A stretch of DNA of 60,624 bases. Origin: Rhodothermales bacterium (lineage in GTDB: Bacteria > Bacteroidota > Rhodothermia > Rhodothermales > JABDKH01). This document shows, one piece after another, positions 48,266 to 53,207 of this stretch (the first letter of the stretch is position 1; every line of letters starts with the position of its first letter). Both the position numbers and the translations under genes were made by a program. Location: positions 1 to 60,624 of the forward strand of contig JANQRN010000248.1 of assembly GCA_028284545.1 (NCBI GenBank), read 5' to 3'. The notes beneath the pieces were generated by a model. It did no database searches, was not told the origin of the DNA, and worked only from the letters and a program-made list of their open reading frames with translations.

Positions 48266-49482
48266 AGTGCGACCTCCTCGGCATGGCGTTCGATTCGAGT
48301 GGACGGGCCGAGTGCCTCGAGCGCGTCTGATATGTCGGCGACAATGTCGTCTGGATCCTCGAGACCAACAGATATCCGAATCAACCCGTCCCGAATGCCG
48401 AGCCGCTCCCGTTCGGTGGGATCGACATCCCCGTGGGTCATACTCGCGGGGTGCGTCACAATCGTTTCTGTTGCCCCGAGGTTCTCGGCGAGCAGACACA
48501 GCCTTAGCGCCTGGCAGAATTGCACGGCCCCCGCGTATCCGTCCACAAATTCCGCAGCCACGACGCCTCCGCCGTATCGCTGTTGTCGTCGAGCCACTTG
48601 ATACCCCGGAGAGCCTTGCAGCCACGGATAGTGGACTTCCGCGACCGCGGGTTGTGCCAATAGGAACTCCGCTATCGCAAGTGCGCTGTTGGAGTGCCGT
48701 GGGAGTCGAAGCGGGAGCGTCTTCAGCCCGCGAAGCGTGAGCCAGGCGTTATTGGGAGACTGGATCGTGCCTACGGATTTTCTTATGTGTACCAGCCGGT
48801 CGTGTAGATCTCGATCTGCGCAGAGAACCGCCCCTCCGAGTGCACTATTGTGCCCTTCGACGAATTTCGTGGTTGAGTAGACGACGATATCCGCGCCCAG
48901 AGAGACAACGTCTTGACCGAAACTGGTTAGGAAGGTGTTGTCTACTACCAGCGTCGATCCGGTGTCGCTTAGCAGAGCAGAGAGTGCGCCGATGTCGCAG
49001 ACCTTGAGCGTTGGGTTCGCCGGTGTCTCGACAATTACGTGTTTTGTTTCCGGCCGCAGCGCAGCAGAGACCGCATCCAGGTTGGACGCGTCAACGAACG
49101 TCGCCTTCACACCAAAGCGGGGGAGTATCTGCTCCAGGAAGCGACGTGTACCGCCGTATACGACGTCACCACAGACCACGTGATCGCCGGAGCGAGTTGT
49201 GGCCAGCAGCAGCGTCGTGATGGCCGACATGCCCGTGTTAAAGGCGGCTGCAAATGGCAGACCTTCCAGCTCAGACAGGGCCGTTTCAAGCGCGGCTACT
49301 GTTGGGTTCGACGCGCGTGAGTACGTGTGTACGATCTGACCATTGAGTTCACGCTGGGCAAACGTCGTGGTCTGAAATAGGGGGGTGGTCGCTGATCCGA
49401 AAGGAGCCTCACGCGAAAGACCAGCGTGGACAGCCCGAGTCGAGGCGTGCGACGGTGTTTGAGGGAAAGAGGAGACAGCCAT
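48262..49482 (-). CDS. metB: PLP-dependent trans-sulfuration enzyme, probably cystathionine gamma-synthase
   Basis: YSRASNPT, ETPANP, VDNTF, STTKFVEGH, HPASMTH, RISVGLED; first gene after the SAM riboswitch. Confidence 0.72.
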   Translation of the reverse strand: MAVSSFPQTPSHASTRAVHAGLSREAPFGSATTPLFQTTTFAQRELNGQIVHTYSRASNPTVAALETALSELEGLPFAAAFNTGMSAITTLLLATTRSGDHVVCGDVVYGGTRRFLEQILPRFGVKATFVDASNLDAVSAALRPETKHVIVETPANPTLKVCDIGALSALLSDTGSTLVVDNTFLTSFGQDVVSLGADIVVYSTTKFVEGHNSALGGAVLCADRDLHDRLVHIRKSVGTIQSPNNAWLTLRGLKTLPLRLPRHSNSALAIAEFLLAQPAVAEVHYPWLQGSPGYQVARRQQRYGGGVVAAEFVDGYAGAVQFCQALRLCLLAENLGATETIVTHPASMTHGDVDPTERERLGIRDGLIRISVGLEDPDDIVADISDALEALGPSTRIERHAEEVAL

Positions 49483-49611
49483 GATTCCTGATGTTTATCG
49501 TTGAGTACGATCGCATCAGGAGTGACACAGTGTGGAGCGAATGCTCCAATGCACTGCCGGTGTTTATCCAGTGCCGGCATGTTCCTCGTACAGGAATCAC
49601 TCGACCTGAAT

Positions 49612-49766
49612 CACATCGTGGCGTTAAGCCTTGCCTCGGCACCGCGTTCTCGACTGCCTGCATTCATCAGACAGAGTTGAATCGGTTGCCGCCCGGGATT
49701 TGGTTGCGCTCGGGCGATTCGAAAACCGCCACGGGCCAGCCAGAGGCACCCCAGGCTCTTGATGCG
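49612..49766 (-). ncRNA. SAM-I-clan riboswitch (expanded variant)
   Basis: Minus strand: P1 CGCAUC/GAUGUG, J1/2 AAGAG, P2 CCUGGG/CCCGGG, P3 GGCAACC...GGUGCC; lies directly upstream of Met biosynthesis genes. Confidence 0.85.
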
Positions 49767-49902
49767 CCACAAGGATACGCTTCCGAGGGCCGACGTGTCA
49801 ACACCACATGAAATCGCGTAACGGCGGAAGCGCTTTTATGAGCAAGACTATATTCTGATTGTTCGTACGTGTGGAAGTAATAAGCGCGGAAATAGGGCTG
49901 CA

Positions 49903-50535
49903 GTGTGGCTGTTTGAAGGGATACGCAGGTACTACGGCGGACTCGCGACACACGAGTATGTAGCTGGGTCGGGGCAGTACGCTCACTATTTCGCGCTGTG
50001 CACGCCTGCGAATCAGGTTGGCGGAGAGACAGGAGAATACCTGCGGGATCGCAAGTTCGAAACGAGGTCGACTGCGACAACGCACGCGATCGATGACGCT
50101 ACAGTCAAGAAAATCCGTACACGGATTGTCCGAATCGCAGATGGTAGCCTGACGCGCGACCAGCGTAGTATTCGCGTAACGGCACCGCCGACGCGGTCAG
50201 ACAAGATTGTCAGAAGTGCGTGGTTGACACTGTGGTCGGCAGTTGCCCTCAACGGATTGGTACTTCTAGCATCGTTTGGAACCGGTGCGGAAGTCGGGCC
50301 CATGTATAAGAGCCTTCTCGGGGGGTTTCCGTCGAAGGTCGAGCGCTCGGATTATGTTCGATGTAGAGAAGAACCGCTGGTCGAGCAAGTCAGCGTATGC
50401 CGTGATGGCTGGATCTCGCGGTCATCGGGATCGGGGACATGTTCGTGGCACGGTGGCGTCTCGCACCGGGATGAAATAGAACGCGAGCGCGGTAAGCGAG
50501 AGTGCATGCAGGCGTTCGTCAATGGCAGACAGTAG
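49903..50535 (+). CDS. Hypothetical membrane protein with a C-terminal Cys/His motif (DUF3761-like)
   Basis: One TM helix followed by CRDGWISRSSGSGTCSWHGGV; start uncertain. Confidence 0.6.
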   Translation: MWLFEGIRRYYGGLATHEYVAGSGQYAHYFALCTPANQVGGETGEYLRDRKFETRSTATTHAIDDATVKKIRTRIVRIADGSLTRDQRSIRVTAPPTRSDKIVRSAWLTLWSAVALNGLVLLASFGTGAEVGPMYKSLLGGFPSKVERSDYVRCREEPLVEQVSVCRDGWISRSSGSGTCSWHGGVSHRDEIERERGKRECMQAFVNGRQ

Positions 50536-50540
50536 CCGCC

Positions 50541-51983
50541 TCAGCTCTTGTCGTCGACATGTGCGTCGGCATCCGTAACGCGAATAAAATCGGCCGCGCT
50601 GTCACGAAGCCGATCACGTTGGTGGACGTACGTCATCGTCGTGTCAATGCTCTTGTGCCTCGCGTGAGCCTGAACCTGCTGTATCGTTGCGCCGGCTTCT
50701 ATAGCAAGCGTACATCCTGTGTGACGAAGCGTGTGAGCTCCGGTAGTCGGGAGTCCCGCATCTTCAGCAGCTTTCGTGACGATGCGGTAGATGGCGTGCG
50801 CCGACAACCGATTTCCATAGCTGTTGTTACTGAACGACCTCCATAGCGGGCCCGTGGTGATGTTGAATTCGTTGCGGTACTCGTGAATAATTGCGTCGAT
50901 GTGGTCGGGGATCTTCACGTACTGATCTGCTCCGCCTTTTGCCTGCGGAATATCCAATACGGTAAACGACCCAAGTGGCCTGATGTGTTCGACATCCATT
51001 GCGGCCGCTTCACTGCGACGCAGTACGCAGTGCAAAAGCGTCTGGACAAGGGCCTGGTCACGCACGCCCGTTCGCGCGTTGGCGGCGGCGGCGGCAACGA
51101 GTGCCGAAGCCTGTTCAGCGGACAGGTAGAACACGACGCGGTCTCTTGCGCTTACTCTGCGAACACGTCTCAACAGTTGCCGATTCGCCGGATTTCGTTC
51201 AACGAGCTCCAACGCTAGCAGCCAGTCATAGAAGCCACGTATTGCTGCGATCCGTCGCTTGATTGTTGATGCCTTTTGATCGTTTCGTTCCATTTCGGCG
51301 ATGTGCTCGTTCACGTGCAGGAACGTTGCGCGCTGAGCCAGTTCTCGGTTGACGTGCTCGGTACCGAAGAACCGACGCAGGTCGTTCCAATAGGCACGTT
51401 GCGTTCGCTCGCGATCAAACCGGTGCAAGTAGGCAATCAGGAGGTTTGCGTTAGCAGATCCCAGGTCGAGGGATGTTTCGCGACTCGTTGCGGGGTGAAT
51501 TGTTGCGGGGTGAGTTGTTGCGGGGACGGGCGAAGGTTGCGTCTGGATGAATGCCCGTTGGACCGGTTCATCTGTGCGGGGCGGCATACTTGACTCGAAT
51601 GACAGGTTTGATAGCGCGTTGTTTGACGGGTCGCCGTCGACATGCGTAATGCCTGACGAAGCTGCGGACGCACCGACAAACGTCCGGACAACGGCGCGAT
51701 GCACTAGAACCGTCCGCGACTTGCCGCCGTCGCGCACGCTGAACCGCTGGTGACCGTTCTTAAGCTTCGAAGCCTTGATAACCTTGCCGGGCCACAGTAC
51801 GGGTCCGCGAGGGTTGTTGCGCATGCGCGGCAACGAAAGGACGCGGCCGTGCGAAGAGATCAGATAGTCTGGATGGACACCGGTGTCGAGGACCAGCTGG
51901 CGCCAACTTTCGCCGGGTTCGGTGCCGGCCAGATCAAGCAGTTTCTTCGTGAGGCGATCAATGTCGTGGTGTCGAGTGAACAT
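50541..51983 (-). CDS. Tyrosine recombinase (XerC/D-like) with N-terminal NUMOD4/HNH module
   Basis: SAM-like core (TQRAYWNDLRRF, STIKRRIAAIRGFY); catalytic R (LRRSEA), K (AKGG), HTLRH, H and Y (RHKSIDTTMTY); N-terminal E.WR...YLISSHGRVLS and VHR.V..F...HVDGDPSNN.LSNL. Confidence 0.9.
   Translation of the reverse strand: MFTRHHDIDRLTKKLLDLAGTEPGESWRQLVLDTGVHPDYLISSHGRVLSLPRMRNNPRGPVLWPGKVIKASKLKNGHQRFSVRDGGKSRTVLVHRAVVRTFVGASAASSGITHVDGDPSNNALSNLSFESSMPPRTDEPVQRAFIQTQPSPVPATTHPATIHPATSRETSLDLGSANANLLIAYLHRFDRERTQRAYWNDLRRFFGTEHVNRELAQRATFLHVNEHIAEMERNDQKASTIKRRIAAIRGFYDWLLALELVERNPANRQLLRRVRRVSARDRVVFYLSAEQASALVAAAAANARTGVRDQALVQTLLHCVLRRSEAAAMDVEHIRPLGSFTVLDIPQAKGGADQYVKIPDHIDAIIHEYRNEFNITTGPLWRSFSNNSYGNRLSAHAIYRIVTKAAEDAGLPTTGAHTLRHTGCTLAIEAGATIQQVQAHARHKSIDTTMTYVHQRDRLRDSAADFIRVTDADAHVDDKS
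51487..51526. repeat. 15-bp tandem repeat (about 2.7 copies) encoding PATTH/PATIH/PAT in the recombinase linker
   Basis: GTTGCGGGGTGAATT GTTGCGGGGTGAGTT GTTGCGGGGA. Confidence 0.8.
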
Positions 51984-52115
51984 GCTACAGGGGCAATCGA
52001 AGCTGTGGCAATCGGAGCTGCGGCTGTTGAGAGCTCAGTCGGAACTATGTCGCGTCGGTCGCAGTCAGGAGATAGGTGGTGGAAAACGGACCAACGAGCG
52101 CCTATTCGTAAACAT

Positions 52116-52143
52116 AGGTACTATAACCTATATTATCAAGTGT
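52116..52143. other. Candidate 28-bp dif-like tyrosine-recombinase site
   Basis: AGGTACTATAA-CCTATA-TTATCAAGTGT: 11-6-11 layout with an ATAA-N6-TTAT core; AT-rich island about 130 bp upstream of the recombinase. Confidence 0.6.
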
Positions 52144-52236
52144 AGCGGTTGGCCATATTGTGGTGGCATCGCGACGCACGCGCATACAAGCAAACGCAGG
52201 CTCCGAACGCGGGACCTTCAAACAAACCCTGACCTA

Positions 52237-52314
52237 ATCACACTGTGGATCACACTGTGGATCACACTGTGGATCACACTGTGGAATACACTGTCGAATA
52301 CACTGTGGAACACA
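52237..52314. repeat. 12-bp tandem repeat array (ATCACACTGTGG x4, two degenerate units and a partial unit)
   Basis: Read directly from the sequence; overlaps the possible miaA 5' end. Confidence 0.95.
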
Positions 52315-53207
52315 TCCCGGTCATCGTGGGACCAACGGCCGTCGGCAAGACTGGCGTCGCTCTGGCGTTGGCGCGTCATCTGGACGCCGAGATTGTATCC
52401 GCAGATAGCCGGCAGCTGTTCCGCGAACTGAATATCGGCACCGCAAAGCCTACCGCGGACGAGCTCGCCACGATCCGACATCACTTTGTTGATGACCTCG
52501 CGCTAGGAACTGCGTTCTCCGCCGGCCAGTTCGCCGACATGGCGCACGAACGCATCGCACAGATTCGTGACCGCGGCAAACGTGTCGTCGTGGTCGGCGG
52601 ATCCACGCTCTACATTCACGCGCTGGTCTACGGCTTGGCCGACATTCCACAGATCGATGATGCTATTGTCGCCAAAACGAATCAGCAGCTTCAAGAGCAC
52701 GGCAGCGATTGGCTACACGCCGAGTTGTCAGCCGTCGACCCTGAGGGCGCCGCCAGAATTGATCCCTCGAAGTCGCATCGAATCGTGCGGGCGCTTTCGG
52801 TACATCGCGCTACCGGGCGCCCTCTGGCGTCCTATTGGAGGCCCAGTTGCGGCAATTCCTTATTTCGCGTCTTTGTGCTCGACCGCGACCGGCAGGAACT
52901 GTATAGCCGGATAAATCGACGCGTAGATGACATGGTTTCTCGAGGTCTACTCGAAGAGGTGCGCGGACTGCTCGACTCAGGGATCGACGAATCGCTACAG
53001 TCCCTGCAAAGTATCGGTTATGCAGAGCTGATCAGCCATCTTCGAGGTGAACGATCATTGGCCGAGGCGGTGAGCCTCATGAAACGAAACTCGCGTCGTT
53101 ACGCGAAGCGTCAGCTCACGTGGTTTCGCCGGTACACCGAGGCCGTCTGGCTCGACGCAACCGCACCTGTTACCACGACCTGTCGTAGCATTCTGGCGGC
53201 ATGCTAG
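52245..53207 (+). CDS. miaA: tRNA (adenosine37-N6)-dimethylallyltransferase
   Basis: VGPTAVGKT, SADSRQ, IGTAKP, VGGSTLY, RYAKRQLTWF. The start may be any in-frame GTG in the repeat, e.g. 52305. Confidence 0.95.
   Translation: MDHTVDHTVDHTVEYTVEYTVEHIPVIVGPTAVGKTGVALALARHLDAEIVSADSRQLFRELNIGTAKPTADELATIRHHFVDDLALGTAFSAGQFADMAHERIAQIRDRGKRVVVVGGSTLYIHALVYGLADIPQIDDAIVAKTNQQLQEHGSDWLHAELSAVDPEGAARIDPSKSHRIVRALSVHRATGRPLASYWRPSCGNSLFRVFVLDRDRQELYSRINRRVDDMVSRGLLEEVRGLLDSGIDESLQSLQSIGYAELISHLRGERSLAEAVSLMKRNSRRYAKRQLTWFRRYTEAVWLDATAPVTTTCRSILAAC

Follow-up and report, generated by a model that had tools for sequence, protein, structure and literature searches.

We analysed a contig of 60,624 nucleotides from a Rhodothermales metagenome bin (JANQRN010000248.1, assembly GCA_028284545.1; the whole stretch is called the window below), in which an open reading frame (ORF) on the minus strand at 50541..51983 joins a nuclease-like domain to a tyrosine recombinase. 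The ORF is open through all 480 codons, and its 480-residue product, designated P0001, comprises a NUMOD4/HNH module resembling I-HmuI (residues 1-132), a linker that bears a repeat, and a complete tyrosine recombinase. Residues 1-108 (51660..51983, minus strand, as are all parts of this ORF) form an N-terminal helix, a NUMOD4-type beta-sheet domain and one further helix, as indicated by Pfam and PHROG matches, alignments and an AlphaFold2 (AF2) model with predicted local distance difference test (pLDDT) values of 76-97. They are followed by the remnant of an HNH beta-beta-alpha-metal finger (residues 109-132; 51588..51659), recognized by Pfam HNH_3, by alignment to I-HmuI (PDB 1u3e) and in the AF2 model, which retains the strands with H114, N122 and N126 and has lost the helix and the presumed metal-ligand positions (T113, and P135 by spacing). 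A Pro/Thr-rich linker with low model confidence begins at M133 (residues 133-178; 51450..51587) and leads to a SAM-like core-binding domain (residues 179-262; 51198..51449), supported by AF2 helices and an above-threshold Pfam Phage_int_SAM_1 match at residues 192-256, and then to the catalytic domain (residues 287-457; 50613..51125). This layout agrees with the original prediction, which was made from the sequence and had described a single uninterrupted ORF with NUMOD4 and HNH signatures at residues ~25-128, a Pro/Thr repeat linker, a complete recombinase with an R-K-HxxR-H-Y motif, and an HNH domain that stops before its last helix.

Assembly of the same region with a second program supports the fused ORF. 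A Logan contig (run X1) is identical to the window over 50300-52266, with 0 differences, 0 gaps and a depth of 9; the comparison is one of contigs, and as run X1 is possibly the source sample itself, the Logan contig is independent as an assembler only. The source genome is a bin of 326 contigs, estimated to be 81% complete. The genes flanking the fused ORF are syntenic with those of a genome from the same genus (G118), which places the contig in the lineage of the bin; G118 lacks the miaA region, so that an empty-site comparison within the genus is not possible. The linker contains a 15-nt tandem repeat (51482-51525, ~2.6 copies) encoding a repeated Pro/Thr-rich pentapeptide, and the methionine at its beginning, M133, is a possible internal start codon. 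A homologous N-terminal domain is also present in three metagenomic proteins of 442-443 residues (P0004, P0006 and P0007), whose contigs measure 22-58 kb. The fusion is genuine and is not a singleton, and the concern raised with the original prediction that it might be an assembly artefact or an isolated case can largely be set aside.

The recombinase half is complete. The Pfam Phage_integrase match at residues 287-457 scores 70.7 bits, against a cut-off of 27.1 (E-value 1.7e-19), and R322, K349, H417, R420, H443 and Y452, which we take to be the catalytic residues of the R-K-H-R-H/W-Y motif, are invariant across ten aligned relatives. A Foldseek search found XerA (5hxy, E-value 2.6e-10), with lambda Int also among the fold matches. 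The recombinase is encoded in 94 of 151 sampled Rhodothermales genomes, mostly in single copy, and most relatives of P0001 are recombinases of 316-325 residues with 60-73% identity. Their genomic neighborhood is recurrent: of the 19 other loci, eight contain miaA and six a rhodanese-like ORF, and a 625-residue membrane/methyltransferase gene lies near the recombinase gene in the window, G032 and G013. Recombinase, usually a rhodanese-like ORF, and then miaA are co-directional in seven loci (L007, L008, L009, L010, L011, L014 and L021), whereas in the window and in G032 (L018) the recombinase gene is oriented away from miaA. The recombinase gene, together with its site, must therefore have undergone at least one inversion at this locus. 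With these features the gene resembles a conserved Xer-type gene of the chromosome and not the integrase of a phage or of an integrative and conjugative element (ICE). At the level of NCBIfam equivalogs it stands apart from XerA (103 against a cut-off of 220) and XerS (54 against 267), as well as from XerC and XerD.

In the N-terminal module neither Pfam match reaches its cut-off: NUMOD4 at residues 25-82 scores 18.4 bits against 23.4, and HNH_3 at residues 93-127 scores 22.5 against 24.8 and covers profile positions 2-36 of 46, the two domains following each other in the expected order. HNH-endonuclease families in PHROG match residues 23-128 with E-values of 3.4e-21 and 4.9e-19, and a profile of the HNH subfamily matches I-HmuI (1u3e) with an E-value of 9.5e-14. 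The AlphaFold model of residues 1-135, the check that had been suggested, is confident (mean pLDDT 90.5, predicted template modelling score, pTM, 0.82) and I-HmuI-like, with I-HmuI as the sole significant PDB match in a Foldseek search (E-value 1.6e-5, template modelling score 0.57, 107 columns). On the PHROG, profile and fold matches, the homology to HNH endonucleases is real despite the sub-threshold Pfam scores, and P0001 has both the homology and the predicted fold of an HNH catalytic domain.

Alignment to I-HmuI places H114 at His75, N126 at Asn87 and T113 at Asp74, and the position of Asn96, nine residues past Asn87, falls on P135 in the Pro-rich linker. In the model of residues 1-135 the strands at 112-114 and 127-129 are not followed by a helix, and the Pro-rich linker sets in at residue 133. 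In the structure paper on I-HmuI, Asp74 and Asn96 are reported to hold the metal, and His75 is said to be the general base. If these roles are right, the module cannot bind metal. A complete beta-beta-alpha-metal finger, with the general base and two ligands, is absent from P0001, which of these three positions keeps H114 alone. Since both presumed metal ligands are lost, the fused module is probably not a nuclease, and the nicking role that had been proposed for it is unlikely. All 13 residues invariant in an 11-member alignment of the subfamily are present in the module, indicating that some constraint on it remains.

In relatives this module is a separate gene. Of 285 Rhodothermales genomes searched with a profile of the N-terminal (HNH) domain, 21 contain a match, and in 12 of these, including that of the window, the match adjoins the orthologous recombinase gene (at least 55% identity). 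Seven of the 12 have the HNH gene upstream on the same strand (G013, G022, G042, G269, G015 and G263, plus a frameshifted remnant in G031), four have it in divergent orientation (G063, G261, G259 and G150), and in the window it is fused. Except in G063, the HNH gene of every HNH-carrying locus lies between the recombinase gene and a dif-like site, which is described below. Where the pair is intact and on the same strand (six genomes), the stop codon of the HNH gene and the start codon of the recombinase gene either overlap by 4-8 nt or are 1-14 nt apart. Between the palindrome and the start of the recombinase gene, G139 and G269 differ by a clean indel of ~480 nt, namely the HNH gene. Its scattered occurrence at a single conserved site that is empty in relatives is the distribution expected of a homing gene.

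The HNH protein of G013 (Roseithermus sacchariphilus MEBiC09517) has 182 residues and exceeds both Pfam cut-offs (NUMOD4 37 bits, HNH_3 41 bits). Unfused HNH proteins of the order and ~10 metagenomic cluster representatives have a C-terminal helix in common that is missing from the fused forms, and the junction in P0001 lacks ~50 residues of the partner protein, corresponding to its C-terminal third. The nearest unfused relative of the N-terminal domain is P0133, with 53% identity. At the position of Asp74, where P0001 has T, the remaining aligned proteins have R or V, and an Asn at the position of Asn96 is seen, by eye, in members of families f5 and f15. These comparisons indicate that the module is the neighbouring gene of the relatives, fused in place. 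The notion of a chimeric recombinase with a co-opted homing module holds as far as the fusion goes, and its recruitment from afar does not.

Several HNH genes are visibly decayed or rearranged. In G031 (L042/L012) the N-terminal part and the part with the H-N-N residues lie in different frames, and in P0214 similarity is lost directly past the first Asn of the motif, leaving a frameshift-like tail. In G259 (L031, ~1234-2020) and G150 (L036, ~1333-2123) a divergent HNH gene is flanked by a full dif-like site and a lone arm (10/11), which could be the footprint of an Xer-mediated insertion or inversion. We considered whether the HNH gene might be an integrative mobile element exploiting Xer (IMEX), and dropped the idea: a second copy of the site flanking the gene is seen just as this lone arm in G259 and G150, and none is present in the window. 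Among 401 genomes sampled across the class, the HNH profile matched within the order alone, and 13 HNH loci from other phyla have no such recombinase within 3 kb. A broad search of representative proteins with the profile returned 174,500 relatives, the top 150 of which include many multi-copy HNH proteins and not P0001, which makes this search unsuited to counting fusions. Complex prediction for the unfused pair of G013, run without controls, gave no verdict (score 0.02, mark 0.32) and speaks neither for nor against binding.

A further element of the locus is a 28-bp dif-like site (52116..52143), consisting of two 11-nt arms around a 6-nt spacer. It precedes the start of the fused gene by 132 nt and is the sole site of its type in the 60-kb window. 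The type was found by comparing upstream regions and is defined as an 11-6-11 inverted repeat in which the inner four bases of each arm are all A or T, for which base composition predicts ~0.01 chance occurrences per locus. It is present upstream of the gene in 26 of 28 recombinase loci, exactly once per whole locus in 25, and in eight of 12 further complete genomes (six perfect 11/11 palindromes, all from one genus, and two weaker sites). In loci without an intervening HNH gene, at most ~210 nt separate the site from the recombinase match downstream of it. The outer arm positions vary between genomes yet, by eye, remain complementary; because the arms change and keep their complementarity, symmetric binding by one protein is implied.

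The site also coincides with the switch in strand composition. The cumulative G-C maximum of the whole window is at 52166, 23 nt beyond the site; in the complete genome G022 the cumulative G-C peak over 397 kb lies within a few nt of the site, and in G013 it lies 5.3 kb away. Measured from dnaA in five complete genomes, the gene or site is at 171 (G022), 169 (G013), 168 (G002), 169 (G020) and 138 degrees (G027). A 28-bp inverted repeat at the skew switch, ~170 degrees from dnaA, carries the signature of a dif site, and we infer that the recombinase acts on this adjacent site.

The site of the window is itself unusual, as its gene-proximal arm is poorly symmetric (5/11 by eye). The median complementarity of the arms, again by eye and among genomes that are kin, is 9/11 in 12 HNH-linked loci versus 11/11 in 13 loci without HNH, the site of the window having the lowest value. 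That the fused domain compensates for a weak gene-proximal arm is no more than a hint, the genomes being related and G039, without an HNH match, being similarly asymmetric. Asymmetric sites with no HNH gene in sight occur in G039 (L125, 2144830-2144857) and G025 (L019), with a gene-proximal arm resembling that of the window, so the arm may represent a second arm type rather than decay. Between the site and miaA, a 12-nt tandem repeat (52225-52320, ~6.5 copies) is unique within the genome assembly and absent from the 26 related loci scanned, for which reason it was dropped as a candidate for a conserved arm site. The longest miaA ORF (start 52245) runs through this array, which it translates into a tetrapeptide repeat. 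The end of the Logan contig falls within the array, and a related 16-nt copy lies at 50220-50235. On the other side of the recombinase gene, ~1 kb (49483-50540) separates it from a gene for a pyridoxal phosphate (PLP) enzyme of Cys/Met metabolism and holds no convincing gene: a 210-residue plus-strand ORF there has no Pfam match, and Rfam has no match over 49300-52500.

The three metagenomic proteins with a homologous N-terminal domain help to place the fusion in evolution. In P0004, P0006 and P0007 the whole H-N-N segment is deleted, while the beta-domain is open and keeps its invariant residues; among themselves they share 50-80% identity in the N-terminal domain and 81-94% in the recombinase. 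In its recombinase part, P0001 shares 73% identity with the unfused proteins P0002 and P0003 but 61-62% with the P0004 group, whose own nearest unfused relatives reach 70-72%. Because each fused lineage is nearer to unfused relatives than to the other, two independent fusions are the simplest reading. Scans of metagenomes for further fused forms found none, and searches for longer homologues returned P0001 alone; the latter also missed the known P0004 group and are thus insensitive.

Quick trees of the recombinase (28 rows) and of the HNH protein (11 rows) agree on three comparable groupings, namely the pair of the window with G013, G015 with G022 and G042, and G261 with G263, G259 and G150. 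This agreement suggests that the HNH and recombinase genes have travelled together. The pair of the window groups with G013, from another family, and not with six other rows of its own family (f1), and its branches are long: 0.43 versus 0.055 for G013 in the recombinase tree, and 1.85 versus 0.099 in the HNH tree. Such long branches and the grouping with G013 fit either transfer of the pair en bloc or relaxed constraint after the fusion, or both, and the grouping could also be a long-branch effect.

The explanation that we prefer, with somewhat better than even confidence, is that P0001 is a terminus Xer protein, presumably a chromosome-dimer resolvase acting on the adjacent dif-like site, that bears a fused and decayed HNH remnant derived from the neighbouring gene. 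In relatives, an I-HmuI-like NUMOD4/HNH gene specific to Rhodothermales, and usually translationally coupled to xer, sits between the dif-like site and xer. According to this proposal, a deletion in the lineage of the window would have removed the C-terminal third of the HNH protein (the last helix, the conserved tail and the stop codon), thereby joining both frames. What survives would be a beta-sheet domain, still folded and attached through ~45 flexible linker residues in the manner of an arm-binding domain; at best it would help to bind DNA or to tether the protein near dif, and at worst it would be a tolerated passenger. The data show the fusion, its derivation from the neighbouring gene and the dif-like site with its place at the terminus, whereas Xer function, the loss of nuclease activity and any binding of DNA are inferred. 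We give a little less than an even chance to a functional role of the appendage, which might bind DNA near dif in an arm-like manner or contact a partner. The unfused family may be a homing-type element harboured in the conserved dif-xer interval or a true Xer accessory factor. Co-inheritance, coupling, a conserved tail and fusions in two lineages lean towards more than a pure parasite.

A number of observations weigh against this explanation. With respect to the recombinase, the NCBIfam scores for XerC (117.2 against a cut-off of 335) and XerD (104.1 against 330) are far below threshold, and 145 of 151 genomes encode a second Xer-like recombinase, in single copy and 26% identical to that of P0001 (in G000 at 10875-11873 of contig C144, locus L002); this second gene lies away from the terminus in G013 and G022. 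Given its presence, which of the two Xer-like proteins resolves dimers is not settled, and it is doubtful that the dif-linked one is the sole Xer. With respect to the site, it was not recognized upstream of the gene in two of the 28 loci, nor in four of the 12 further complete genomes, the palindrome may instead be an operator, and the window extends only 8.5 kb past the skew switch. With respect to the module, the metal ligands that it has lost are presumed ones; H95, H114, N122 and N126 are invariant in 11 of 11 aligned subfamily members, P0001 included, and the module may retain some nuclease activity. The full-length AF2 model has pLDDT values below 50 at residues 109-134 and low confidence across 109-167; we ascribe the discrepancy with the model of residues 1-135 at 109-134 to a mixed alignment in the full-length run. 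Finally, the start at M1 is predicted, and a start at M133 may yield an unfused recombinase.

The last point belongs to the main rival, which we consider clearly less probable though still serious, namely that the fusion is neutral: a selfish homing gene between dif and xer would have lost its 3' end and stop codon, its N-terminal part would be a decaying, functionless leader, and the recombinase may start at M133, where an internal ATG is available. Stop and start codons that overlap in relatives would ease such a chance fusion, and the patchy distribution of HNH (21 of 285 genomes), the decayed copies in G031 and P0214, the sub-threshold NUMOD4 and HNH_3 scores and the very long HNH branch of the window are all in keeping with a decaying selfish gene. 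A functionless leader, however, would not be expected to remain open over 132 codons with all 13 invariant residues of the subfamily kept, nor to fold confidently in the model. The second fused lineage moreover keeps the beta-domain over 19% divergence of the recombinase, and the agreement between the HNH and recombinase trees suggests long co-inheritance, not repeated invasion.

Less probable again, and in our judgement unlikely, is a stronger version of the accessory role, in which the HNH protein is a dedicated partner of the xer-dif system: either a factor that binds the flanks of dif and positions or activates the recombinase, comparable to the Xer activation factors encoded by phages, or, for intact members, a nickase that processes intermediates. 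The fusions would then record a physical partnership, and P0001 would be an Xer protein in the course of acquiring an arm-like domain.

We regard as improbable an active two-enzyme machine, in which the HNH module still nicks at or near dif in cooperation with strand exchange. The conserved general-base His H114 with N122 and N126, the tight coupling of the genes in relatives and the Asn at the position of Asn96 in members of f5 and f15 (by eye) would suit such a machine, but the helix with that position is gone from P0001, the Asp74 position holds T in P0001 and R or V elsewhere in the alignment, and the second fused lineage has deleted the entire H-N-N segment. Marginally less credible still is the view that P0001 is not a chromosomal Xer protein but serves a mobile element (phage, ICE or IMEX) as its integrase and binds arm sites through a NUMOD4-type domain. 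This would accommodate the layout reminiscent of lambda-type integrases and the fold match to lambda Int, the existence of proteins with NUMOD4 and an integrase domain in the ESM Atlas (see below), the grouping with G013 of another family instead of the six other f1 rows, and the HNH genes of G259 and G150 bracketed by a full site and a lone arm. Against it stand the conserved chromosomal neighborhood and the presence of the gene, as a rule in one copy, in 94 of 151 genomes; the neighbouring ORFs scanned contain no phage or conjugation families, no transfer RNA gene adjoins the recombinase gene, composition shows no anomaly, and no phage record covers at least 80% of P0001. The least probable alternative, an assembly or sequencing artefact joining two genes, might be suspected in an incomplete bin of many contigs with support from contigs, yet it is at odds with an identical sequence from a second assembler at depth 9, with three other fused proteins on contigs of 22-58 kb, and with a junction missing ~50 residues of the partner rather than one base.

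In the literature available to us, which leaves out most subscription journals, we found, in the parts of the sources accessible (including PMC12220804, PMC3025954 and PMC6060240), no published description of a NUMOD4/HNH-recombinase fusion, of a Rhodothermales xer-dif module, or of a nuclease gene between dif and xer. Of the points raised here, the best supported is a putative xer-dif module with a palindromic 28-bp site at the terminus of Rhodothermales chromosomes. Next in support comes a gene of a nuclease family between dif and xer that has a conserved C-terminal helix of its own, is coupled to the recombinase gene and has been fused to it in two lineages, which is unexpected for Xer systems. 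The dif-HNH-xer arrangement, in which more of the interest lies than in the fusion alone, offers a concrete candidate: either an accessory factor of a new kind or a homing element exploiting the most conserved non-coding site of the chromosome. Least supported is the suggestion that the fused forms are natural Xer-like recombinases gaining an N-terminal domain of DNA-binding type, the step proposed for the origin of arm-binding integrases (10.1101/542381). Should the appendage be inert, it would still provide a clean example of the decay of a homing endonuclease through fusion.

Compared with proteins already catalogued, the architecture by itself appears not to be unique. The ESM Atlas contains a cluster of 487 residues with 124 members, 82% of which have NUMOD4, together with Phage_integrase, commonest in Acidobacteriota, and a cluster of 529 residues with 54 members, 26% of which have HNH_3 beside Phage_integrase, commonest in Actinomycetota. 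The domain order is the same as in P0001, the first cluster having Phage_int_SAM_5 and not Phage_int_SAM_1. The combination of NUMOD4 or HNH_3 with an integrase thus seems to exist in other phyla, as far as domain descriptions can be compared, and the statement in the original prediction that such modules are normally not part of integrases was too strong.

The nearest structural counterpart of the module is the HNH homing nickase I-HmuI of phage SPO1 (1u3e), which it matches in profile and fold and with which it shares the positions of H75 and N87, while the positions of D74 and N96 and the helix bearing N96 have been lost. Unlike I-HmuI, the module is not encoded in an intron and is fused to a recombinase. 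I-HmuI also carries C-terminal DNA-binding domains, which are absent from P0001.

In its layout P0001 resembles the arm-binding integrases of lambda Int and Tn916/CTnDOT type, in which, likewise, a flexible linker joins a small beta-rich domain that binds DNA to the core-binding and catalytic domains. The fold of its N-terminal domain is I-HmuI-like and differs from the fold family of the corresponding domain in these integrases, no arm-type repeats are conserved in the related loci, and P0001 has no mobile-element context. Arm-binding integrases have been proposed to have arisen from Xer-like proteins that gained an N-terminal domain, and the main text of that study mentions neither HNH nor NUMOD (10.1101/542381).

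The closest parallels in genomic organisation are XerS/difSL of lactococci and streptococci and XerH/difH of Campylobacterota, in which, as here, a chromosomal recombinase gene lies beside an inverted-repeat site at the terminus (PMC5357621, PMC2731167). A review describes xerS as adjoining difSL in one module and difH as being near xerH, and the central region of difSL is 11 bp (PMC5357621), in contrast to the 6-bp spacer of the module described here. The portions of the xerS and xerH accounts accessible to us mention neither an extra N-terminal domain nor a nuclease gene between site and gene (PMC5357621, PMC2731167). Two hallmarks of XerS/XerH-like organisation, the site beside the gene and the site at the terminus, are found in Rhodothermales, where a second Xer-like gene coexists. 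The recombinase half of P0001 can thus be described, on its predicted organisation, as a single-recombinase xer-dif module that falls outside the XerC, XerD, XerS and XerA equivalogs.

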